Source: Escherichia coli (GTDB taxonomy: Bacteria; Pseudomonadota; Gammaproteobacteria; Enterobacterales; Enterobacteriaceae). From it: a stretch of DNA of 64,000 nt. Every line of letters begins with the position of its first letter. Within the stretch, counting starts at the first letter, position 1. The notes beneath the pieces are model-generated. The model was not told where the DNA came from. It saw nothing but the letters and a program-made list of their open reading frames with translations, and did no database searches. The stretch lies in the NCBI RefSeq assembly GCF_003334305.1, contig NZ_QOWS01000014.1. One strand, 5' to 3'. The position numbers were made by a program, and so were the translations under genes. Shown piece after piece: positions 7,552 through 64,000 of the stretch.

Positions 7552-9084
7552 ATGACGCAGAAAATTGAACAATCTCAACGACAAGAACGGGTAGCGGCCT
7601 GGAATCGTCGCGCTGAATGCGATCTTGCCGCTTTCCAGAACTCGCCAAAGCAAACCTACCAGGCTGAAAAAGCGCGCGATCGCAAACTGTGCGCCAACCT
7701 GGAAGAAGCGATTCGTCGCTCTGGTTTACAGGACGGCATGACGGTTTCCTTCCATCACGCTTTCCGTGGCGGTGACCTGACCGTCAATATGGTGATGGAC
7801 GTCATCGCGAAGATGGGCTTTAAAAACCTGACCCTGGCGTCCAGCTCCCTGAGTGATTGCCATGCGCCGTTGGTAGAACACATTCGCCAGGGCGTGGTTA
7901 CCCGCATTTATACCTCCGGCCTGCGCGGTCCACTGGCGGAAGAGATCTCCCGTGGTCTGCTGGCAGAACCGGTGCAAATCCACTCTCACGGCGGTCGCGT
8001 GCATCTGGTACAGAGCGGCGAACTGAATATCGACGTGGCTTTCCTCGGCGTCCCGTCCTGCGATGAATTCGGTAATGCCAACGGCTACACCGGTAAAGCC
8101 TGCTGCGGCTCCCTCGGCTATGCAATGGTTGATGCCGACAACGCAAAGCAGGTCGTGATGCTTACCGAAGAACTGCTGCCTTATCCGCATAATCCGGCAA
8201 GCATTGAGCAAGATCAGGTTGATTTGATCGTCAAAGTTGACCGCGTTGGCGATGCTGCAAAAATCGGCGCTGGCGCGACCCGTATGACCACTAACCCGCG
8301 CGAACTGCTTATTGCCCGTAGCGCTGCGGATGTGATTGTCAACTCAGGCTACTTCAAAGAAGGTTTCTCCATGCAAACCGGCACCGGCGGCGCATCGCTG
8401 GCGGTAACCCGTTTCCTGGAAGACAAAATGCGTAGCCGCGATATTCGCGCCGACTTCGCCCTTGGCGGTATTACCGCGACGATGGTTGACCTGCACGAAA
8501 AAGGTCTGATCCGCAAACTGCTGGATGTGCAGAGCTTTGACAGCCATGCTGCGCAATCGCTGGCCCGTAACCCCAATCACATCGAAATCAGCGCCAACCA
8601 GTACGCTAACTGGGGTTCGAAAGGCGCATCGGTTGATCGTCTCGACGTGGTGGTACTGAGCGCGCTGGAAATTGACACCCAGTTCAACGTTAACGTGCTG
8701 ACCGGCTCTGACGGCGTACTGCGTGGTGCTTCCGGTGGTCACTGCGATACCGCGATTGCCTCTGCGCTTTCCATCATCGTCGCGCCGCTGGTACGCGGTC
8801 GTATTCCGACTCTGGTGGATAACGTGCTGACCTGCATCACCCCGGGCTCCAGTGTCGATATTCTGGTCACAGACCACGGTATCGCAGTTAACCCGGCACG
8901 TCCGGAACTGGCAGAACGTCTGCAGGAAGCGGGCATTAAAGTGGTTTCCATTGAGTGGCTGCGCGAACGTGCGCGTCTGCTGACCGGTGAACCACAGCCG
9001 ATTGAATTCACCGACCGCGTCGTTGCCGTTGTGCGTTACCGCGATGGCTCGGTGATCGATGTTGTGCATCAGGTGAAGGAATAA
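7552..9084 (+). CDS. citF: citrate lyase alpha subunit (citrate CoA-transferase) CitF
   Basis: ORF 7510..9084; start trimmed to ATG at 7552 (MTQKIEQSQRQERVAAW, 510 aa). Confidence 0.9.
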   Translation: MTQKIEQSQRQERVAAWNRRAECDLAAFQNSPKQTYQAEKARDRKLCANLEEAIRRSGLQDGMTVSFHHAFRGGDLTVNMVMDVIAKMGFKNLTLASSSLSDCHAPLVEHIRQGVVTRIYTSGLRGPLAEEISRGLLAEPVQIHSHGGRVHLVQSGELNIDVAFLGVPSCDEFGNANGYTGKACCGSLGYAMVDADNAKQVVMLTEELLPYPHNPASIEQDQVDLIVKVDRVGDAAKIGAGATRMTTNPRELLIARSAADVIVNSGYFKEGFSMQTGTGGASLAVTRFLEDKMRSRDIRADFALGGITATMVDLHEKGLIRKLLDVQSFDSHAAQSLARNPNHIEISANQYANWGSKGASVDRLDVVVLSALEIDTQFNVNVLTGSDGVLRGASGGHCDTAIASALSIIVAPLVRGRIPTLVDNVLTCITPGSSVDILVTDHGIAVNPARPELAERLQEAGIKVVSIEWLRERARLLTGEPQPIEFTDRVVAVVRYRDGSVIDVVHQVKE

Positions 9085-18475: not shown

Positions 18476-19222
18476 ATGTTAAAAAAGATACTTTTACTGG
18501 CTCTGCTTCCTGCAATCGCCTTCGCAGAGGAACTTCCTTCCCCAGTAAAAGCGATTGAAAAACAGGGCATTACAATCATCAAAACGTTCGATGCCCCCGG
18601 AGGAATGAAAGGTTATCTCGGAAAGTATCAGGATATGGGCGTCACCATCTACCTGACTCCCGATGGTAAGCACGCTATCTCTGGTTACATGTACAACGAG
18701 AAAGGTGAAAACCTGAGTAACACACTTATCGAAAAAGAAATTTACGCACCAGCCGGACGCGAAATGTGGCAACGGATGGAACAATCCCACTGGCTCCTCG
18801 ACGGTAAAAAAGATGCGCCGGTCATTGTCTACGTGTTCACCGATCCGTTCTGCCCATATTGTAAACAGTTCTGGCAGCAGGCGCGCCCGTGGGTAGATTC
18901 TGGCAAAGTGCAATTAAGAACATTGTTGGTTGGGGTTATCAAGCCAGAAAGCCCGGCGACAGCAGCGGCAATTCTTGCCTCCAAAGATCCCGCAAAAACC
19001 TGGCAAGAATATGAATCCTCTGGTGGCAAGCTTAAGCTAAACGTGCCTGCAAACGTAAGTACAGAACAAATGAAAGTGTTAAGCGCCAACGAGAAACTCA
19101 TGGACGATCTGGGGGCAAATGTCACACCAGCTATCTATTACATGAGTAAGGAAAATACGCTGCAACAGGCCGTGGGGTTGCCCGATCAGAAAACGCTTAA
19201 TATCATTATGGGGAATAAATAA
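18476..19222 (+). CDS. dsbG: periplasmic disulfide isomerase/chaperone DsbG
   Basis: ORF 18416..19222; start trimmed to ATG at 18476 ([17 protein letters not shown] signal peptide, 248 aa); CPYC active site. Confidence 0.9.
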
Positions 19223-19234
19223 AAGATAATTCAT

Positions 19235-19270
19235 GGATGGTTGAAATACATCCCTGCTTTTCAACCATCC
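19235..19270 (+). terminator. perfect 12-bp-stem hairpin after dsbG (putative terminator, no clear U-tract)
   Basis: ggatggttgaaa...tttcaaccatcc inverted repeat ~13 bp after the dsbG stop. Confidence 0.4.
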
Positions 19271-19430
19271 TAAAAAAGCATGAATTGCTCGCTCTGCCCT
19301 AAGTGGCTATGCTATTTTAGAAAAACTTAATCCTGAGTTAAGCAAAAAAATATAATCAATAAAAATATATACGCAAAAAACATTGATTAAGTGAATATAC
19401 CATGGAAGAAAAATATAACCGGAGTAGTGT

Positions 19431-20333
19431 ATGGCCAATCTCTACGACTTGAAAAAGTTCGACTTAAACCTTCTTGTCATATTTGAGTGTATTTACCAGC
19501 ATTTAAGCATTAGCAAAGCTGCTGAATCACTATATATCACCCCATCAGCCGTGAGCCAGTCGTTACAACGCTTACGTGCGCAATTTAATGACCCTTTATT
19601 CATTCGCTCAGGAAAAGGTATCGCGCCGACGACAACAGGGTTGAATCTGCATCACCATCTTGAGAAAAACCTCAAAGGCCTTGAACAAACAATTAATATA
19701 GTCAATAAGTCCGAACTAAAGAAAAACTTTATTATCTACGGCCCTCAGCTCATTTCTTGCTCTAATAATAGTATGCTGATCCGCTGCCTACGGCAAGATG
19801 CCTCTGTCGAGATTGAGTGCCATGATATCCTCATGTCAGCAGAGAATGCTGAAGAACTGTTGGTTCACCGCAAAGCCGATCTGGTGATCACCCAAATGCC
19901 AGTGATCAGCCGTTCCGTCATTTGCATGCCATTGCATACAATTCGCAATACTCTAATTTGTAGTAATAAGCATCCGCGAATTACTGACAATAGCACTTAT
20001 GAACAAATTATGGCAGAAGAGTTCACCCAATTAATATCCAAATCAGCAGGAGTTGATGATATTCAAATGGAAATAGACGAGAAGTTTATGAATCGCAAAA
20101 TTTCATTTCGTGGTTCCTCTTTGCTGACAATCATTAATAGCATTGCAGTTACAGATTTACTGGGAATAGTCCCCTATGAACTTTATAATTCCTACCGTGA
20201 CTTTCTTAATTTAAAAGAGATAAAACTAGAACATCCGTTACCTTCAATAAAGCTTTACATTTCCTATAATAAATCTTCTTTAAATAATTTGGTGTTCTCC
20301 CGATTTATTGACCGTCTAAATGAGAGTTTTTGA
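19431..20333 (+). CDS. ybdO: LysR-family transcriptional regulator YbdO
   Basis: 300-aa ORF with N-terminal HTH (LSISKAAESLYITPSAVSQSLQRLR); markedly AT-rich coding region. Confidence 0.85.
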   Translation: MANLYDLKKFDLNLLVIFECIYQHLSISKAAESLYITPSAVSQSLQRLRAQFNDPLFIRSGKGIAPTTTGLNLHHHLEKNLKGLEQTINIVNKSELKKNFIIYGPQLISCSNNSMLIRCLRQDASVEIECHDILMSAENAEELLVHRKADLVITQMPVISRSVICMPLHTIRNTLICSNKHPRITDNSTYEQIMAEEFTQLISKSAGVDDIQMEIDEKFMNRKISFRGSSLLTIINSIAVTDLLGIVPYELYNSYRDFLNLKEIKLEHPLPSIKLYISYNKSSLNNLVFSRFIDRLNESF

Positions 20334-20479
20334 TATATAACTACAGACAGCTACTATAACTTTCATCTATTTATTCACAGCGCGAATGAAAAATAAAACA
20401 CTCTGCTTTGCAGTGTTTACTTTATAATTAACAGACTTATCTCACTGATCACCCTGTAACGTTCAGAGAGCGTCTTCAG

Positions 20480-21700
20480 ATGTCTATTTATAAAATTCCT
20501 CTTCCGCTCAATATTCTGGAAGCTGCACGAGAGCGTATTACCTGGACACTCAACACCCTACCCCGCGTTTGTGTCTCATTTTCTGGCGGCAAAGACTCTG
20601 GTTTAATGCTGCATCTGACAGCCGAACTTGCCCGACAAATGGGCAAAAAAATCTGCGTTTTGTTTATCGACTGGGAGGCGCAATTCTCTTGCACCATTAA
20701 CTATGTTCAGTCCCTGCGCGAGTTGTACACCGATGTCATCGAAGAGTTTTACTGGGTTGCGCTCCCGCTTACGACGCAAAATTCCCTTTCACAATACCAA
20801 CCCGAATGGCAGTGCTGGGAACCTGATGTCGAATGGGTGCGTCAGCCCCCGCAAGATGCGATAACCGATCCTGACTTTTTCTGCTTTTACCAGCCAGGCA
20901 TGACCTTCGAACAATTTGTACGTGAGTTTGCCGAATGGTTTTCACAAAAACGTCCGGCGGCGATGATGATCGGCATCCGTGCGGATGAGTCCTACAACCG
21001 TTTTGTCGCCATCGCCAGTTTAAATAAACAACGTTTTGCCGACGATAAACCATGGACTACGGCCGCACCAGGCGGTCATAGCTGGTACATTTACCCCATT
21101 TACGACTGGAAAGTGGCTGATATCTGGACCTGGTATGCAAATCATCAAAGTCTCTGCAACCCACTGTATAACCTAATGTATCAGGCAGGCGTTCCTCTGC
21201 GTCATATGCGAATTTGCGAACCTTTTGGCCCGGAGCAACGACAAGGATTATGGCTCTATCACGTTATCGAACCGGATCGCTGGGCTGCTATGTGCGCACG
21301 AGTCAGCGGGGTAAAAAGTGGCGGCATTTACGCCGGACATGATAATCATTTCTATGGGCATCGGAAAATCCTCAAGCCAGAACATTTAGACTGGCAAGAA
21401 TATGCATTATTGCTGCTCAATAGCATGCCGGAAAAAACAGCTGAGCATTACCGCAATAAAATCGCCATTTATTTGCACTGGTATCAGAAAAAAGGCATCG
21501 AGGTTCCACAAACCCAGCAAGGGGACATTGGCGCGAAAGATATCCCCTCCTGGCGGCGGATATGCAAAGTTTTACTCAATAACGATTACTGGTGTCGGGC
21601 ATTATCATTTAGTCCTACGAAAGCGAAGAACTATCAGCGTTATAACGAACGGATAAAAGGAAAACGTCAGGAATGGGGGATACTATGCAACAACGATTAA
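20480..21700 (+). CDS. ybdN: PAPS-reductase-like (DUF3440) protein YbdN, IbrA homolog
   Basis: 406-aa ORF; N-terminal SGGKDS PP-loop motif (VCVSFSGGKDSGLMLHL). Confidence 0.85.
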   Translation: MSIYKIPLPLNILEAARERITWTLNTLPRVCVSFSGGKDSGLMLHLTAELARQMGKKICVLFIDWEAQFSCTINYVQSLRELYTDVIEEFYWVALPLTTQNSLSQYQPEWQCWEPDVEWVRQPPQDAITDPDFFCFYQPGMTFEQFVREFAEWFSQKRPAAMMIGIRADESYNRFVAIASLNKQRFADDKPWTTAAPGGHSWYIYPIYDWKVADIWTWYANHQSLCNPLYNLMYQAGVPLRHMRICEPFGPEQRQGLWLYHVIEPDRWAAMCARVSGVKSGGIYAGHDNHFYGHRKILKPEHLDWQEYALLLLNSMPEKTAEHYRNKIAIYLHWYQKKGIEVPQTQQGDIGAKDIPSWRRICKVLLNNDYWCRALSFSPTKAKNYQRYNERIKGKRQEWGILCNND

Positions 21701-22302
21701 CGCAGGATTTAACGCAATTTCTCGCCAGCTTGCCGGAAGATGATCGCATCAAAGCGATTAATGAAATCCGCATGGCGATCCATCAGGTTAGCCCCTTTCG
21801 TGAAGAGCCAGTGGATTGCGTTCTGTGGGTTAAAAACAGCCAACTTATGCCTAATGATTACAACCCAAACAACGTGGCACCACCCGAAAAAAAACTGCTG
21901 AAAAAATCCATTGAAATAGATGGTTTTACCCAACCCATTGTGGTCACGCATACGGATAAAAATGCCCTGGAAATCGTGGATGGTTTTCACCGCCATGAAA
22001 TTGGTAAAGGCTCATCATCATTAAAATTACGCTTAAAAGGTTATTTGCCGGTGACCTGTCTGGAAGGTACGCGTAATCAACGCATCGCCGCGACTATTCG
22101 TCATAATCGCGCTCGTGGACGCCATCAAATCACCGCCATGTCGGAAATCGTCCGTGAACTTAGCCAGTTGGGATGGGACGATAATAAAATTGGCAAAGAG
22201 CTAGGAATGGACAGCGACGAAGTGCTGCGCCTGAAGCAAATTAACGGCCTGCAAGAGCTGTTTGCCGACCGTCAATATTCCCGCGCCTGGACGGTTAAAT
22301 AA
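21673..22302 (+). CDS. ybdM: ParB/Srx-like nuclease-domain protein YbdM, IbrB homolog
   Basis: 209-aa ORF overlapping the ybdN 3' end by 28 bp. Confidence 0.85.
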   Translation: MGDTMQQRLTQDLTQFLASLPEDDRIKAINEIRMAIHQVSPFREEPVDCVLWVKNSQLMPNDYNPNNVAPPEKKLLKKSIEIDGFTQPIVVTHTDKNALEIVDGFHRHEIGKGSSSLKLRLKGYLPVTCLEGTRNQRIAATIRHNRARGRHQITAMSEIVRELSQLGWDDNKIGKELGMDSDEVLRLKQINGLQELFADRQYSRAWTVK

Positions 22303-23463
22303 CTAAAGCTGGCGCAGGCGTTCAGCTGCTGCCAGCAACGTCGATTCCTTCTTGGCAAAACAGAGACGAATCAGTTTATGTGGGAAGGGATCGGCGCAAA
22401 ACACCGACAGCGGAATCGCCGCTACGCCGTGCTCCTGCGTCAGCCACTGGCAAAACTCAACATCATCCAGGGTAGAAACCTCGCTGTAATCCACCAGCAA
22501 AAAGTATGTACCTTCACACGGTAAAATCTCCAGCCGGCTTTCATTTAAAGCATTCACCAGAATATCGCGCTTCTGGCGATAAAAGTCCGGTAACGCAAGA
22601 TAATGCTCAGGTTCTGCACGTAGCATATCAGCAAGCGCCAGCTGTGCCGGGGTATTCACCGAAAAGGTCAGATACTGATGTACCTTGCGAATTTCGGCGC
22701 TGATGGGCGCTGGCGCAACACAATAACCCACTTTCCAGCCGGTCATATGATAGGTCTTGCCAAATGAAGAAACCGCCACTGCCCGCTCACGCAGCTGCGG
22801 ATGCGCCAGCACACTGGCATGGCCCTGTTGTGAAAAGTTGATGTGCTCGTAGACTTCATCGCTAATGACAAAAATCTCGTGCCCGGCGATCGCCTGCCAC
22901 AAAGCGGCGAAATCAGCCTGCTGCCAGACAGTTGCACTGGGGTTATGCGGAGTGTTGAGGATCACCAGTCTGGTGCGCTCGCTTAATAATGCGGCAAATT
23001 CCTGCCAGTCAACGCGAAAATGCGGTGGTTGCAGTGCCATACGCTTCACTATTCCCCCAGAAAGCGCGATGGCGGGGGAGTAACTGTCATAGCTGGGATC
23101 AAAACAAATCACTTCATCGCCATTGCGCACCAGTGCGGTAATCGCCGCGTATAACGCTTCCGTCGCCCCTGCCGTTACGGTGATATCGCTATCGGCATCT
23201 GGTTGATAGCCATACAAACGTTCCGTTTTCTGAGCAATCGCCTCGCGCAAGGCCTGCACGCCGGTCATGGGCGCGTATTGGTTTGCCCCCTGGGCAACGT
23301 GGTACGCCAGCCGCTCCTGTAAATAGCGCGGACCATCAAAATCAGGAAAGCCTTGCGACAGGTTAATCGCCTGGTGTTGCTGCGCCAGCGCGCTCATCTG
23401 GGTGAAAATAGTGGTGCCAAGTTGTGGAAGTTTGCTTTGTGGAATCAGAGGGTTATTTGTCAT
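22303..23463 (-). CDS. ybdL: PLP-dependent methionine aminotransferase YbdL
   Basis: 386-aa class-I aminotransferase ORF MTNNPLIPQSKLPQLGTTIF. Confidence 0.88.
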   Translation of the reverse strand: MTNNPLIPQSKLPQLGTTIFTQMSALAQQHQAINLSQGFPDFDGPRYLQERLAYHVAQGANQYAPMTGVQALREAIAQKTERLYGYQPDADSDITVTAGATEALYAAITALVRNGDEVICFDPSYDSYSPAIALSGGIVKRMALQPPHFRVDWQEFAALLSERTRLVILNTPHNPSATVWQQADFAALWQAIAGHEIFVISDEVYEHINFSQQGHASVLAHPQLRERAVAVSSFGKTYHMTGWKVGYCVAPAPISAEIRKVHQYLTFSVNTPAQLALADMLRAEPEHYLALPDFYRQKRDILVNALNESRLEILPCEGTYFLLVDYSEVSTLDDVEFCQWLTQEHGVAAIPLSVFCADPFPHKLIRLCFAKKESTLLAAAERLRQL

Positions 23464-61293: not shown

Positions 61294-62731
61294 GCCATTT
61301 CAGCGCCCGTTTTCGCTGGCAACCCGTCTGACCTTTTTTATCAGCCTGGCCACCATCGCGGCGTTTTTCGCCTTTGCATGGATCATGATCCACTCAGTGA
61401 AAGTGCATTTTGCCGAGCAGGATATTAATGATTTAAAAGAAATTAGCGCCACCCTTGAACGGGTACTTAATCATCCTGACGAGACGCAAGCCCGACGCTT
61501 AATGACGCTGGAAGATATCGTCAGTGGTTATTCCAACGTGTTGATTTCCCTGGCAGATAGCCACGGCAAAACGGTGTATCACTCCCCCGGTGCGCCGGAT
61601 ATCCGCGAGTTTACGCGTGACGCCATACCCGATAAAGACGCGCGGGGCGGTGAGGTGTATCTCCTTTCCGGCCCGACGATGATGATGCCAGGCCACGGTC
61701 ACGGGCATATGGAACACAGCAACTGGCGGATGATTAACTTGCCGGTTGGCCCGTTGGTGGACGGCAAACCGATTTATACGCTCTACATCGCGCTTTCGAT
61801 CGATTTTCATCTTCATTACATAAATGATTTGATGAATAAACTTATTATGACCGCATCTGTCATCAGCATCCTGATCGTCTTTATCGTGCTATTGGCGGTA
61901 CATAAAGGTCACGCGCCGATCCGCAGCGTCAGCCGTCAAATCCAGAATATCACCTCGAAAGATCTCGACGTTCGCCTTGACCCGCAGACCGTGCCCATTG
62001 AGCTGGAACAGCTGGTACTGTCGTTCAACCATATGATCGAGCGTATTGAGGATGTCTTTACCCGCCAGTCCAATTTCTCAGCGGATATCGCTCACGAAAT
62101 TCGCACGCCGATTACCAATCTCATCACGCAAACGGAAATCGCCCTCAGCCAGTCTCGCAGCCAGAAGGAGCTGGAAGATGTGCTCTACTCTAATCTCGAA
62201 GAGCTGACGCGAATGGCGAAAATGGTCAGCGATATGCTGTTTCTCGCTCAGGCCGATAACAACCAGCTAATCCCCGAAAAGAAAATGCTCAACCTGGCGG
62301 ATGAAGTCGGCAAAGTGTTCGATTTTTTCGAGGCGTTAGCGGAAGATCGCGGCGTGGAGTTGCGGTTTGTTGGCGACAAATGTCAGGTTGCGGGCGATCC
62401 GCTGATGCTGCGTCGGGCGTTAAGCAACCTGCTTTCTAATGCCCTGCGTTATACGCCACCCAGTGAGGCTATTGTAGTGCGCTGCCAGACGGTCAATCAT
62501 CAGGTGCAAGTTTCCGTCGAAAACCCCGGTACGCCCATTGCGCCCGAGCACTTACCGCGATTGTTTGACCGTTTCTATCGCGTTGACCCTTCCCGCCAGC
62601 GAAAAGGTGAAGGTAGCGGTATTGGGCTGGCGATAGTGAAATCGATTGTTGTCGCGCATAAAGGCACGGTTGCGGTAACGTCAGATGCGCGGGGGACAAG
62701 GTTTGTGATTATGCTGCCGGAGAGAGAGTGA
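61283..62731 (+). CDS. cusS: copper/silver sensor histidine kinase CusS
   Basis: ORF 61271..62731 (track start is TTG); ATG at 61283 gives [22 protein letters not shown]; overlaps the cusR 3' end by 11 bp. Confidence 0.9.
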
Positions 62732-63467
62732 TTATTAAGTTCAAATTCAGGGCGTGGTGCATCACCTCCTGGTATTGTTGATCAACAAATTAGAGAAAAA
62801 CTTATTAAACATATGAAATATCGAAGGCTTTTATTTTTCAAAGTTTCACGAGATGTTTGTATATGAAACTTAGTTAAATCTGTGTTTCTTCCAATTGTAG
62901 ATCACAATGCCCTTTCTAAATTTTCATCGTTATAAACAAGCCATCTATCATATAAAGCAATGAATAATTTAATCGCGATTAATCATCATTAATTGTTATA
63001 TTATTCACTCAATCTATTTATCAAGTGAATTTGATAAATTCCTAATTTAAAATATCCACTATTGAGCCAGTATTTAACAACGTTAAGATGTGCAATGTGC
63101 AGATCATGTTATCAGGGTGGAGCGGTAGCATATATTTCTTATGCAATCATTCATTTTAATAATGTTAATTGGATTATTTATTGCTGTGAATAAAAATATA
63201 TTATGAATATTGGTTTAACTTTGCGTTTTTGTTACTCGTTGTGATATGCGTACCTGTCCTGAATAACGCCAAGAAACAAGAGGTTGAGCTTGTGATTATT
63301 TTTTTGACTGAACAGACACCCGTTTCTGTAAAGTAATATTTAAACAAAATTCTCACATAACCATAGCATTTTCTGTTCCTTCCCTAATAACGTCTGAAGT
63401 CGTCCCGCTTATCACATTATCCGCAGTTGTACGGTACGGATCATTATTCATTTTACCGGAGGTTGCT
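62732..63467. other. AT-rich ORF-free spacer between cusS and the vgrG-like gene
   Basis: ~735 bp of strongly AT-rich sequence with no ORF of 60 codons or more on either strand; sharp compositional contrast with flanking genes. Confidence 0.6.
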
Positions 63468-64000
63468 ATGTCAACCGGATTACGTTTCACACTGGAAGTG
63501 GACGGCCTGCCGCCGGATGCTTTTGCGGTGGTTTCCTTTCATCTGAACCAGTCACTCTCTTCGCTCTTTTCCCTCGATCTCTCCCTGGTCAGCCAGCAGT
63601 TTCTCTCCCTTGAATTTGCGCAGGTGCTGGACAAAATGGCCTACCTGACGATATGGCAGGGCGATGAAGTACAGCGCCGGGTGAAAGGCGTGGTGACCTG
63701 GTTTGAACTCGGGGAGAACGACAAAAACCAGATGCTGTACAGCATGAAGGTGCACCCGCCGCTGTGGCGTGCCGGTCTGCGCCAGAACTTCCGTATCTTC
63801 CAGAACGAGGACATCAAAAGCATCCTCGGCACGATGTTGCAGGAAAACGGGGTGACCGAATGGAGTCCGCTGTTCAGCGAGCCGCATCCTTCCCGTGAGT
63901 TTTGTGTCCAGTACGGTGAGACTGATTACGATTTCCTGTGCCGGATGGCGGCGGAGGAAGGCATCTTCTTTTATGAGGAGCACGCGCAAAAAAGTACCGA
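63468..64000 (+). CDS. vgrG: VgrG-like type VI secretion spike protein, N-terminal part only (runs off the window)
   Basis: ATG at 63468 preceded by GGAGG RBS; translation MSTGLRFTLEVDGLPPDAFAVVSFHLNQSLSSLFSLDLSLVSQQFLSLEFAQVLDK... is a typical VgrG N-terminus; not on the ORF track because there is no stop within the window. Confidence 0.75.
   Translation, partial: MSTGLRFTLEVDGLPPDAFAVVSFHLNQSLSSLFSLDLSLVSQQFLSLEFAQVLDKMAYLTIWQGDEVQRRVKGVVTWFELGENDKNQMLYSMKVHPPLWRAGLRQNFRIFQNEDIKSILGTMLQENGVTEWSPLFSEPHPSREFCVQYGETDYDFLCRMAAEEGIFFYEEHAQKST

Follow-up and report, generated by a model that had tools for sequence, protein, structure and literature searches.

In this report, we find with high confidence that ybdN and ybdM, two adjacent genes of the Escherichia coli chromosome, are the core-genome copy of a two-gene module of the IbrA/IbrB type. 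With equal confidence, most other copies of the module are carried by phages, large plasmids or genomic islands. The two genes form an effectively obligate pair, and their products probably constitute a DNA-directed, ATP-using enzyme. The locus, its regulation and its kinship to IbrAB are already on record, and the identification itself is no discovery; what is added to the published record is the obligate pairing with its breadth among phages and plasmids, the finding that the pair belongs to no PADLOC system, the lack of a conserved cysteine in YbdN together with its fold neighbors, and the compact SNF2 ATPase that accompanies many copies.

The window, i.e. the whole stretch of DNA analysed, comprises 64,000 nucleotides. 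Its citR(ybdO)-ybdN-ybdM segment is an already known E. coli chromosomal locus, 100% identical to the chromosome of E. coli 2013C-3181, in which RefSeq annotates citR, ybdN and, as an “IbrB-like domain-containing protein”, ybdM. The open reading frames and the 28-bp overlap of ybdN and ybdM lie exactly where an earlier note, made from the letters alone, had put them. The features discussed below are:

19223-19430, + strand: dsbG-ybdO spacer with the ybdO promoter (GC 0.312, z -3.1)
19431-20333, + strand: ybdO = citR, open reading frame of 300 aa
20334-20479, + strand: ybdO-ybdN spacer, presumed ybdN promoter/operator region (GC 0.349)
20480-21700, + strand: ybdN, open reading frame of 406 aa
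20567-21181, + strand: YbdN residues 30-234, ATP-pyrophosphatase-type PP-loop domain of the PAPS-reductase/FAD-synthase/CysD clade
20582-20599, + strand: YbdN PP-loop SGGKDS (S35-S40), motif binding the ATP alpha/beta-phosphates
21188-21628, + strand: YbdN residues 237-383, helical DUF3440 domain
21673-21700, + strand: overlap of the ybdN 3' end and the ybdM 5' end (28 bp)
21673-22302, + strand: ybdM, open reading frame of 209 aa
21808-22125, + strand: YbdM residues ~46-151, ParB-N/Srx-type nucleotide-binding domain
21979-21993, + strand: YbdM DGFHR motif, invariant
22099-22125, + strand: YbdM RHNRARGxH motif, invariant
22126-22251, + strand: YbdM residues ~152-193, HTH-like C-terminal segment

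The locus belongs to the core genome: 5423 of the 5426 complete E. coli genomes have it. Its neighbors here are dsbG, ahpCF, ybdL and hcxA. It is syntenic across Enterobacteriaceae (73-84% protein identity) at a fixed dsbG-ybdL position; any horizontal transfer must therefore be ancient. The overlap of 28 bp recurs in eight other enterobacterial genera, and short overlaps or gaps are usual in the family, the median gap in viral loci being 3 bp. From this overlap we infer that ybdN and ybdM are likely to be translationally coupled. The MG[DN] N-terminus of YbdM is retained even in a 58%-identical plasmid paralogue, which favors the annotated start over an internal ATG at 21685. Both proteins look functional: comparison of the two E. 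coli allele classes gives a dN/dS of 0.023 for ybdN and of 0 for ybdM, whose product is 100% identical in the two.

The earlier note headed the three genes as an AT-rich islet and, in its text, named ybdO and the flanking intergenic regions as the AT-rich part. The description holds for ybdO and the spacers, and not for the ybdN/ybdM pair. The block 19223-20479, which contains ybdO and both spacers, has a GC content of 0.370 where the window averages 0.521 (z = -3.3) and ranks among the lowest 0.12% of same-size windows; ybdO alone stands at 0.386 (z -2.7). Neither ybdN (0.476, z -0.97) nor ybdM (0.468, z -0.94) is unusual. The horizontal origin and H-NS silencing also proposed for ybdO are experimentally published: H-NS binds ybdO at its AT-rich promoter and in the 5' part of its coding region, and holds its expression low (PMC4720273; PMC9141747), as documented by H-NS ChIP and lacZ fusions (PMC4720273) and by EMSA and ChIP-qPCR (PMC9141747). 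The gene thus carries both marks of H-NS-silenced horizontal DNA, the AT-richness computed here and the published H-NS binding and repression. Transposed from K-12 numbering (K-12-type strains align here without indels), the ybdO transcription start, 107 nt 5' of the start codon, falls at about 19324, the upstream H-NS element (URE, -250 to -176) at about 19181-19255, and the downstream element (DRE, +27 to +164) at about 19457-19594, within ybdO (PMC4720273).

YbdO is CitR, matching the NCBIfam equivalog NF047710 over residues 1-294 with 467.9 bits (cut-off 400). CitR is a LysR-type repressor of ybdNM with a ChIP-exo peak upstream of citR-ybdNM, and RNA-seq of a citR deletion gave log2 fold changes of +5.5 for ybdN (about 45-fold) and +2.5 for ybdM (PMC9068703). 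The regulatory part of the locus is therefore already known and, because CitR represses ybdNM, the pair is essentially off under laboratory conditions. The ybdO-ybdN spacer has a -10-like TATAAT at 20423-20428 that is retained in both deeply diverged E. coli alleles; the spacer is only 71% identical between them, and GTTTAC..TATAATTAAC is nonetheless kept. Since a promoter scan of this spacer scored no higher than chance, its function as a promoter is presumed.

YbdN matches Pfam PAPS_reduct (PF01507, 1.2e-13) and DUF3440 (PF11922, 5e-23), and PHROGs phrog_2302 over its full length (1.4e-76). It has a PAPS-reductase-like alpha/beta fold, and its closest folds are adenylyl-transferring or sulfonucleotide enzymes, including FAD synthase, APS/PAPS reductases and CysD; no relative of known function was detectable for DUF3440. 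The SGGKDS PP-loop, which the earlier note had singled out, is invariant or nearly so among 51 diverse homologues (G37, K38 and S40 invariant; S35, G36 and D39 at least 90%), and GIRxDES is likewise invariant. Whereas the canonical PP-loop is in place, YbdN departs from CysH, CysD and eukaryotic FAD synthase in its additional DUF3440 domain, and it falls far below every curated family cut-off. For CysH the scores are 34.8 bits against 254.2 (TIGR02057), 24.9 against 165.1 (TIGR00434) and 34.0 against 154 (PRK02090), and for CysD 24.8 against 195 (NCBIfam). CysH enzymes carry a conserved catalytic cysteine of the ECGLH type in the C-terminal tail. That residue has no counterpart in the 51 YbdN homologues, among which no invariant cysteine was found at all: C246 is Cys in 28 of the 51 and Ala in 15, and the best Cys column of the alignment is occupied in YbdN itself by Ala94. 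Given this lack of a conserved cysteine, YbdN can be counted neither among the CysH-type reductases nor among the DndC-type enzymes; as judged from the alignment, it is no reductase and no persulfide- or Fe-S-dependent sulfur-transferase.

A ParB/Srx-like fold had been suggested for YbdM. It is borne out by the match to PHROG 2159, “ParB-like partition protein” (3.9e-69), and by the family profile, which finds the structures of Noc (4.5e-7), ParB (3.3e-6) and SbnI (E 0.004) in the PDB; the Pfam ParB_N match is weak (2.8e-4). When 47 homologues were aligned, with a mean column identity of 46%, NxYNPN proved invariant, as did the two motifs listed above, and a conserved FSxAW tail follows the HTH-like segment. 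ParB and Noc are CTP-dependent DNA clamps, and VirB of Shigella is a ParB-like anti-silencer. Like ParB and Noc, YbdM has a ParB-N fold followed by a helix-turn-helix; its NxYNPN resembles box I, and an arginine-rich motif resembles box III. In contrast to them, it has only 209 aa and no C-terminal dimerization domain, carries DGFHR in place of the box II motif GERRxRA, and has no ParA partner, there being no ParA-like ORF in the locus. Its scores against the partition models (15.8 versus 58.45 bits for TIGR00180; 20.4 versus 315 for TIGR04285) likewise fall far short of those of a partition ParB. We take its DGxHR-type motif to resemble the enzymatic branch of the ParB/Srx fold. Residues 52-175, approximately, match the N-terminal ParB-N modules of phage and plasmid DNA methyltransferases (phrog_498, 1e-10; PADLOC MTase_II, 6.6e-4). 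There, too, a ParB-N module is coupled to a DNA-modifying catalytic unit; for YbdM, however, that unit would be a PP-loop protein with a gene of its own, in place of a SAM-dependent methyltransferase in the same polypeptide.

The two genes go together almost without exception. A YbdM-like gene lies on the same strand in 78 of 79 genomic YbdN loci, which span at least seven phyla and include a Heimdallarchaeote; the sole unpaired locus stops at a contig edge. The reciprocal search, via YbdM, found an adjacent YbdN-like gene in 79 of 80 viral loci; in the eightieth, such a gene lies 729 bp away. Phage records number 224 and 226 for the two proteins, with an identical host breakdown, and virulent phages are among the carriers. 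The pair further occurs in 855 plasmid records with an adjacent ParB-N gene, Klebsiella and E. coli virulence plasmids included, and on at least ~600 viral metagenome contigs. Failure of the two genes to co-occur, which the earlier note had named as grounds for giving up its reading, is thus decisively contradicted. No genuine natural YbdN-YbdM fusion was found; the only chimera, P0244, was left by a deletion and occurs on just one contig of 3 kb. A compact ATPase with SNF2-rel_dom and Helicase_C domains abuts the pair in 16 genomic loci and also in Streptococcus and Flavobacterium phages. The E. coli locus has no such partner, nor do most of the enteric and plasmid copies or 76 of the 79 close viral relatives. 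Other copies are accompanied by a small, possibly GNAT-like, protein.

Membership in the IbrA/IbrB group rests on domain content and arrangement. YbdN is an IbrA-like protein with PAPS_reduct and DUF3440 domains, and directly beside it on the same strand YbdM supplies the IbrB-like ParB-N protein with its HTH-like tail; gene order and the overlap of the reading frames are also shared. A protein named “IbrA family prophage gene co-activator” by NCBI (P0049) is 74% identical to YbdN, and the accessory chromosomal and plasmid paralogues of the IbrA/IbrB type are ~58% identical to YbdN and YbdM over their full lengths. The RefSeq names, the domains and these paralogues all agree with the reading of the locus as a LysR gene plus an IbrA/IbrB-type pair. 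The copies differ in their setting: ybdNM is core, sits at a fixed site and is preceded by its own LysR repressor, whereas the ibrAB-type copies are accessory, being found on plasmids or in tens of genomes, and have no LysR gene. Enhanced expression of Eib, the product of the immunoglobulin-binding eib genes of prophages, is reported for IbrAB (Sandt 2002, as cited in PMC7649339). A literature search returned no mechanistic account of the YbdN-YbdM pair.

We tentatively favor, at somewhat less than even odds, a two-subunit DNA-directed enzyme that transfers adenylyl groups or otherwise modifies its substrate, that came from a mobile element, and that is silenced by CitR and H-NS. YbdM would bind DNA in an NTP-dependent manner through its HTH-like tail and intact ParB-N pocket (DGFHR, RHNRARGxH), and would recruit or gate YbdN. 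The PP-loop of YbdN would convert ATP to AMP and PPi and move AMP onto an acceptor oxygen of DNA or of a substrate bound to it, for instance that of a base carbonyl or a phosphate. The AMP could then be displaced by a nucleophile. The compact SNF2 dsDNA translocase that goes with many phage and bacterial copies would lend processivity. The outcome would be a covalent mark on DNA or its remodeling, and hence altered gene expression, as in the effect of IbrAB on prophage eib; in phages and plasmids, it would also affect what becomes of the element's own DNA. The HTH-like tail, the SNF2 partner, the methyltransferase ParB-N kinship and the DndB/DndC precedent speak for DNA as the target. Physical contact between YbdN and YbdM is possible: when the two are modeled by AlphaFold as a locus-paired chain fused through a linker, YbdN residues 5-11 turn into a strand, as does the conserved YbdM C-tail, and confidence for YbdN 1-10 rises from 67 to 85, in a model that is as a whole not confident (pTM 0.62).

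That precedent is the PAPS-reductase/ParB pairing that the earlier note had mentioned for DNA modification, and it exists as DndC/DndB (PMC12839542). In Dnd (compare also SspD, and BrxP of type-4 BREX), the gene for a ParB-superfamily protein accompanies that for a PAPS-reductase-like PP-loop ATP pyrophosphatase acting on DNA (PMC12839542), and DndC shares its PP-loop motif with YbdN. YbdN is nonetheless not DndC: it scores 22.2 bits against a cut-off of 290.4 for TIGR03183, matches PADLOC DndC with 21.8 bits over residues 155-254 only, and lacks the conserved cysteines (Fe-S / DndC-specific Cys dyad, PMC12839542). Neither dndA (cysteine desulfurase) nor dndD or dndE lies near the E. coli locus or recurs near the pair, and YbdM gave no DndB match in PADLOC. 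Further, the Dnd system can do without its regulator DndB, whereas the YbdM-type genes are obligate members of the pair.

The strongest competitor, which we nevertheless judge unlikely, is a transcriptional co-activator or anti-silencer that works without covalent DNA chemistry. Presumably by analogy with VirB of Shigella, YbdM might load onto DNA and displace H-NS from AT-rich, horizontally acquired genes, with YbdN as a nucleotide-handling accessory subunit. The reported effect of IbrAB on Eib would fit (Sandt 2002, as cited in PMC7649339), as would the ParB-N and HTH-like architecture of YbdM, the profile matches to the CTP-dependent Noc and ParB structures, and the position of the locus itself within H-NS-bound DNA. 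Deletion of citR, which derepresses ybdNM, changes 86 genes, although very few sites of CitR binding were detected (PMC9068703). However, the flagellar changes in that mutant also appear in a ybeF deletion (PMC9068703) and so may be strain effects. The altered box II, the missing dimerization domain and the sub-threshold NCBIfam ParB score argue against a clamp of this kind, and the proposal leaves two things unexplained: the obligate partnership with an invariant PP-loop enzyme that is evidently catalytic, and the carriage of the pair by virulent phages together with an SNF2 ATPase.

Somewhat less likely still is a role in sulfur or nucleotide-cofactor metabolism. YbdM would be a kinase like SbnI/SerK, or sulfiredoxin-like, YbdN an adenylyltransferase like FAD synthase or CysD, and the two would jointly make or consume an activated phospho- or sulfo-adenylate, phage copies being auxiliary metabolic genes. 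The best structural and sequence neighbors of YbdN are of this type, SbnI is among the YbdM profile matches, and the PHROGs category of the family is “moron, auxiliary metabolic gene”. In the citR mutant, cysDNC, cysJIH, cysUWA and tcyP rise by 1.8-3.2 (log2) with no CitR binding reported (PMC9068703). In another study, YbdM protein and the S-methylmethionine transporter MmuP went up together, YbdM by 29-fold (PMC8764527). The rise of the CysB regulon, the co-induction with MmuP, and the convergent neighbor ybdL, which encodes a methionine transaminase, count circumstantially against a DNA enzyme, as does the fact that PP-loop enzymes also act on tRNA and on small molecules; each of the cys and MmuP links is a correlation seen in one study. 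SbnI and SerK, which are small-molecule kinases, and sulfiredoxin do belong to the same ParB/Srx superfamily, but their similarity to YbdM is marginal, YbdM lacks the Srx catalytic Cys, and its genomic context is non-biosynthetic. The low CysH and CysD scores and the want of a conserved Cys for reductase or Srx chemistry weigh against this role as well; the HTH-like tail, the SNF2 partner and the methyltransferase-fused ParB-N relatives all point to DNA; and neighborhood analysis found no conserved metabolic genes around the pair outside enterics.

The defense context that had also been raised fares poorly, and we consider it improbable that the pair is an anti-phage or anti-plasmid system, whether a modification module like Dnd or type-4 BREX or an abortive-infection module in the host chromosome. 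In its favor are weak, partial similarities of YbdN to PADLOC DndC (2e-5) and BrxP (1.2e-4), defense genes beside the copies in Dyella L035 (DpdJ, 2137 bits) and Heimdallarchaeote L050 (PDC-S37, 1061 bits), and candidate operons in a preprint that combine a YejK-like nucleoid protein, a “PAPS reductase”, and Arc and ParBc proteins. However, all PADLOC-DB v2 matches are partial and sub-threshold (E 2e-5 to 7e-4), none is meaningful in score or coverage, and CitR has none. No restriction-type effector lies beside the pair in E. coli or recurs elsewhere; defense proteins account for only two of eight large neighbors tested, and the Dyella copy has no nucleoid-protein partner. The locus is core and silenced in E. 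coli, not variable, and the abundance of the module in its main habitat, phages (virulent ones included) and plasmids, suits a function that benefits the element better than defense. Modification of tRNA or rRNA bases, with a TilS/TtcA/TtuA-like YbdN adenylating the base and YbdM as specificity or regulatory subunit, is very improbable, as YbdN matches the PAPS-reductase clade more strongly than it does these enzymes, it lacks the conserved Cys/Fe-S ligands of the thiolases, and the ParB-N + HTH and SNF2 partners are oriented to DNA.

If the DNA-directed enzyme is taken one step further, YbdN-YbdM/IbrA-IbrB might represent an unrecognized class of DNA modification, neither methylation nor phosphorothioation. 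A ParB-N/HTH targeting subunit, a cysteine-independent PP-loop adenylyl-transferase and an optional SNF2 translocase would mark the DNA of thousands of phages and plasmids, and one copy, under the control of CitR and H-NS, would serve E. coli and related bacteria as a domesticated, conditional epigenetic switch for sulfur, motility or virulence genes. We regard this extension as speculative and rather doubtful. Besides the E. coli core genome, hundreds of sequenced phages and about 850 large plasmids carry the inseparable pair. Its function, once shown, would account for a widespread activity of mobile elements and for the long-known activation of prophage genes for surface proteins by IbrAB. 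The indirect regulatory effects of CitR, which has been linked to K1 capsule expression and meningitis, might be explained as well. The copy in E. coli is a tractable entry point, as deletion of citR derepresses the operon.

Architecture and homology place the citR-ybdNM locus among the IbrA/IbrB-type modules. The earlier note had proposed as much; its overall finding is real and was correctly read, and it is already on record. The genes of this region run in the order ahpF(-), ahpC(-), dsbG(+), ybdO/citR(+), ybdN(+), ybdM(+), ybdL(-) and hcxA/ybdH(+), and the three under study lie as follows.

19431-20333, + strand: ybdO/citR, LysR-type regulator
20480-21700, + strand: ybdN, PP-loop, PAPS-reductase-like protein
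21673-22302, + strand: ybdM, ParB-like protein, annotated start

Bases 19200-22400 of the window are 100% identical to the chromosome of E. coli 2013C-3181, and of 5426 complete E. coli genomes, 5423 have matches to the locus. ybdN and ybdM overlap by 28 bp if the annotated ybdM start is used, an overlap also present in 8 other enterobacterial genera. We prefer this start to an internal ATG at 21685 because the YbdM N-terminus MG[DN] is retained in a 58%-identical plasmid paralogue.

YbdN and YbdM are obligately paired, and the main habitat of the pair is mobile elements. A genomic survey with YbdN as the query, at one genome per species, returned 79 loci from Pseudomonadota, Bacteroidota, Bacillota, Lentisphaerota, Verrucomicrobiota, Campylobacterota, Tenericutes and one Heimdallarchaeote. 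A YbdM-like gene is present on the same strand in 78 of the 79, at a distance of no more than 300 bp in 75; the lone exception stops at a contig edge. Viral contigs queried with YbdM gave at least 593 stretches, and a same-strand YbdN-like gene adjoins YbdM in 79 of the 80 viral loci examined (in the 80th it is 729 bp off), with both gene orders represented. Co-occurrence of the pair across genomes, on which the earlier note had staked its reading, is thus firmly established. In phage and plasmid collections, where counts are slightly inflated because some records are mislabelled, YbdN-like genes occur in 224 phage records and YbdM-like genes in 226, with identical host breakdowns (for example, Flavobacterium 90/90, Mycobacterium 60/60, Streptococcus 21/21 and Arthrobacter 12/12), and a ~58%-identical paralogue sits next to a ParB-N gene in 855 plasmid records (Klebsiella 323, Escherichia 204, Ralstonia 129, Shigella 123). 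The two genes are adjacent in every phage inspected, and in Mycobacterium phage Gadjet the pair immediately precedes the large terminase gene. The plasmid copy is a bare two-gene unit amid virulence cargo (e.g. ehx, iro), and 59 E. coli genomes hold diverged accessory copies.

As to the mislabelled records, unannotated “phage” entries of 2-3 kb (OR851112.1, OR845499.1; Salmonella phage S.Kent 1-2-1, Escherichia phage ECO95 1-6-1) are host-type ybdN/ybdM-like DNA at 78-82% identity, and the 4.8-Mb “plasmid” NZ_OL790696.1 is evidently a chromosome. Cluster-B-type mycobacteriophages have a second, distinct ParB-like gene (phrog_723; Gadjet gp1, 1-693 of the retrieved locus L002) three genes upstream of the pair. 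A check of 269 retrieved proteins gave no genuine natural fusion of YbdN and YbdM, the over-long ones being extensions or frameshifted calls. The only double match, P0244 (281 aa; L167 1246-2091, beside a NinB gene on one 3-kb metagenomic contig), joins an IbrB-like N-half, through DGFHR, to an IbrA-like C-half (DUF3440). It probably arose by deletion or by misassembly, and we rejected this apparent deletion chimera, present on a single contig, as Rosetta-stone evidence.

YbdN matches the Pfam families PAPS_reduct over residues 30-234 (1.2e-13) and DUF3440 over residues 237-383 (5e-23). In an alignment of 51 full-length homologues, taken from 50%-identity cluster representatives, the invariant or nearly invariant features are the PP-loop S35-G-G-K-D-S40, D64/E66, W113/W119, GIRxDES and D214/Y230, and the protein is classed as a predicted enzyme of the PP-loop ATP-pyrophosphatase/adenylyl-transfer type. 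“PAPS reductase” here names the family and makes no statement of function. A conserved cysteine was sought in these 51 homologues and none was found: at C246, 28 have Cys and 15 have Ala, and in the column richest in Cys (44/51) YbdN itself has Ala94. Curated models for CysH, CysD and DndC all scored far below cut-off, and the DUF3440 domain alone had no match among PDB sequences at E up to 10.

The YbdM family (47 sequences; mean column identity, 46%) has the invariant motifs NxYNPN, DGFHR and TIRHNRARGxH, counterparts of ParB boxes I-III, although its box II differs from the GERRxRA of partition ParB. The C-terminus carries an HTH-like LGMxxDExLRLKQ and then a terminal FSxAW tail. Among structures, the YbdM profile finds Noc (4.5e-7), ParB (3.3e-6) and, marginally, the ParB-fold kinase SbnI; YbdM also matches the ParB N-terminal module of phage/plasmid DNA methyltransferases (phrog_498, 1e-10; PADLOC MTase_II, 6.6e-4). 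As a curated ParB it was rejected, the model score being far under the cut-off. Membership tests of the locus as CysH, CysD, partition ParB or any PADLOC system were likewise negative. DndB/DndC is closest in working mode, but ybdNM is not a member of that system. A linker-fused, locus-paired AlphaFold model of YbdN-YbdM had limited overall confidence (pTM 0.62). In it, both the conserved C-tail of YbdM and residues 5-11 of YbdN turn into strands, and confidence for YbdN 1-10 rises from 67 to 85; these modelled strands hint at a possible YbdN-YbdM interface.

The LysR gene is found beside the chromosomal pair of enterobacteria and not beside the other versions. At 16 genomic loci from several phyla, a compact SNF2-family ATPase (SNF2-rel_dom + Helicase_C; ~410-500 aa) directly adjoins or overlaps the start of the pair, and the same holds in Streptococcus phage CHPC1148 and Flavobacterium phage FCOV-F46. 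E. coli lacks this three-gene form of the module. Examples from the retrieved loci are given here.

L001, 3758-4996: SNF2 ATPase gene
L003, 3240-4451: SNF2 ATPase gene
L027, 5739-6983: SNF2 ATPase gene, one of the 16 genomic loci

A small protein (~136-155 aa) directly adjoins the pair at ~23 loci (e.g. L031 1760-2170, L035 ~8200-8630), just upstream of it in Bacteroidota and between both genes in Dyella and Sphingomonas. Pfam gave it no significant match, with GNAT families only at E ~0.03, a hint that it may be GNAT-like. The flanks of the genomic copies are otherwise variable, and we do not claim these copies as prophages because PHROGs match in only 4 of 20 flanking ORFs.

We tentatively favor the view that YbdN-YbdM is a DNA-directed enzyme, which to us is a possibility somewhat short of even. 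YbdM would bind DNA and an NTP and would recruit or gate YbdN; YbdN would adenylate an acceptor on DNA, and the product would change gene expression or the fate of the DNA. The PP-loop and the ParB-N pocket are intact, no Cys is conserved, and the SNF2 partner is present in a subset. Our literature search for a mechanism of YbdN/YbdM or IbrA/IbrB returned annotation-level mentions and no mechanistic study; the pairing, motif and partner results now make possible sharper tests of the biochemical activity of YbdNM.

A different proposal is that YbdNM is a non-covalent anti-silencing co-activator, which we regard as unlikely.

Silencing of the locus by H-NS and CitR has been shown by others, and this regulatory part of the finding is already known because it is published (PMC9068703, PMC4720273, PMC9141747). 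YbdO scores 468 bits against the curated CitR equivalog, above the cut-off of 400. Rodionova et al. 2022 (PMC9068703) reported a CitR ChIP-exo peak upstream of citR-ybdNM and, in delta-citR, increases of log2 5.5 for ybdN and log2 2.5 for ybdM. Higashi et al. 2016 (PMC4720273) counted ybdO among the horizontally transferred genes bound by H-NS, placed the TSS of ybdO 107 nt 5' of the start codon, and defined H-NS elements up- and downstream. Further, H-NS represses ybdO directly, acid pH relieves this repression, and YbdO activates K1 capsule genes (Fan et al. 2022, PMC9141747).

A role in small-molecule or sulfur metabolism seems to us quite unlikely. Circumstantial evidence in its favor comes from delta-citR, in which the CysB regulon (cysDNC, cysJIH, cysUWA, tcyP) is up by log2 1.8-3.2 with CitR binding unreported there (PMC9068703 Table 1), and, equally circumstantially, from MG1655 carrying a blaCTX-M-15 plasmid, in which YbdM protein rises 29-fold along with MmuP, a transporter of S-methylmethionine (Rajer and Sandegren 2022, PMC8764527). 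In the latter study, YbdM overexpression had a 10% growth cost and ybdM deletion was approximately neutral. ybdL, the convergent neighbor of ybdM, encodes methionine transaminase. Together, the CysB-regulon rise, the YbdM/MmuP co-induction and ybdL make up a recurrent sulfur/methionine association around ybdNM.

That YbdNM serves in defence, a link the earlier note had raised, appears improbable. A PADLOC scan of all three proteins gave only sub-threshold partial matches, and membership in a known defence system was rejected. Strong defence proteins account for 2 of 8 large neighbors tested, an anecdotal co-location.

L035, 9721-14277, - strand: DpdJ helicase, Dyella sedimenti (PADLOC, 2137 bits)
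L050, 9641-14530, - strand: PDC-S37/Hhe-like protein, Heimdallarchaeote (1061 bits)

The PANGU cluster-9 architecture was rejected for the Dyella locus, the upstream YejK-like gene being absent. RNA modification as the function of YbdNM is highly improbable.

The AT-richness ascribed to ybdO and its flanking spacers held as worded: GC content averages 0.521 over the window and is 0.370 in block 19223-20479 (z -3.3), which puts this block in the lowest 0.12% of windows of its size. ybdN (0.476) and ybdM (0.468) are both less than 1 standard deviation from the window mean. AT-rich stretches at ~200-1300 and ~62500-63700 of the window (900-bp GC, 0.34-0.37) equal or exceed ybdO in AT content. In a scan of 19150-22450, sigma-70 promoters and terminators numbered no more than shuffle expectation. 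A footprint of the ybdO-ybdN spacer in 9 enteric sequences (column identity, 43%) yielded no conserved operator; TATAAT is the only element there common to both E. coli alleles.

Those alleles are distributed over 3634 E. coli genomes with at least 95% identity to the window and 1768 at 80-90% (the ~89% class). We compared window 19223-20479 with 3023-4279 of L004, a locus of the latter class. ahpC, 1.3 kb from ybdO, is identical between the classes. ybdO has 78.7% nucleotide identity, saturated dS (3.5) and a dN/dS of 0.019, and identity is 71% in the ybdO-ybdN spacer. On sequence grounds, ybdO/citR is present in E. coli as two functional, deeply diverged alleles, and the divergence suggests an old allelic dimorphism or the import of an allele, with purifying selection rather than decay. 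A high ybdO substitution rate was also seen by Higashi 2016, who put it down to H-NS (PMC4720273). ybdN and ybdM are under strong purifying selection: protein identity between alleles is 98.5% for YbdN (dN/dS 0.023) and 100% for YbdM (dN/dS 0).

In E. coli ET120 (L005 6232-7601), an IS5/ISKpn26 element cuts ybdO off after ~36 codons, and a deletion from the truncated ybdO to entF has removed ybdN, ybdM, ybdL and the intervening ent/fep genes. The locus is therefore dispensable, since this strain is without ybdN, ybdM and most of ybdO. In Escherichia albertii NBRC 107761 (L008 1421-1783), the YbdM-like ORF is only 120 aa long and begins 239 bp past the ybdN stop, with no overlap; this strain may have a disrupted ybdM.
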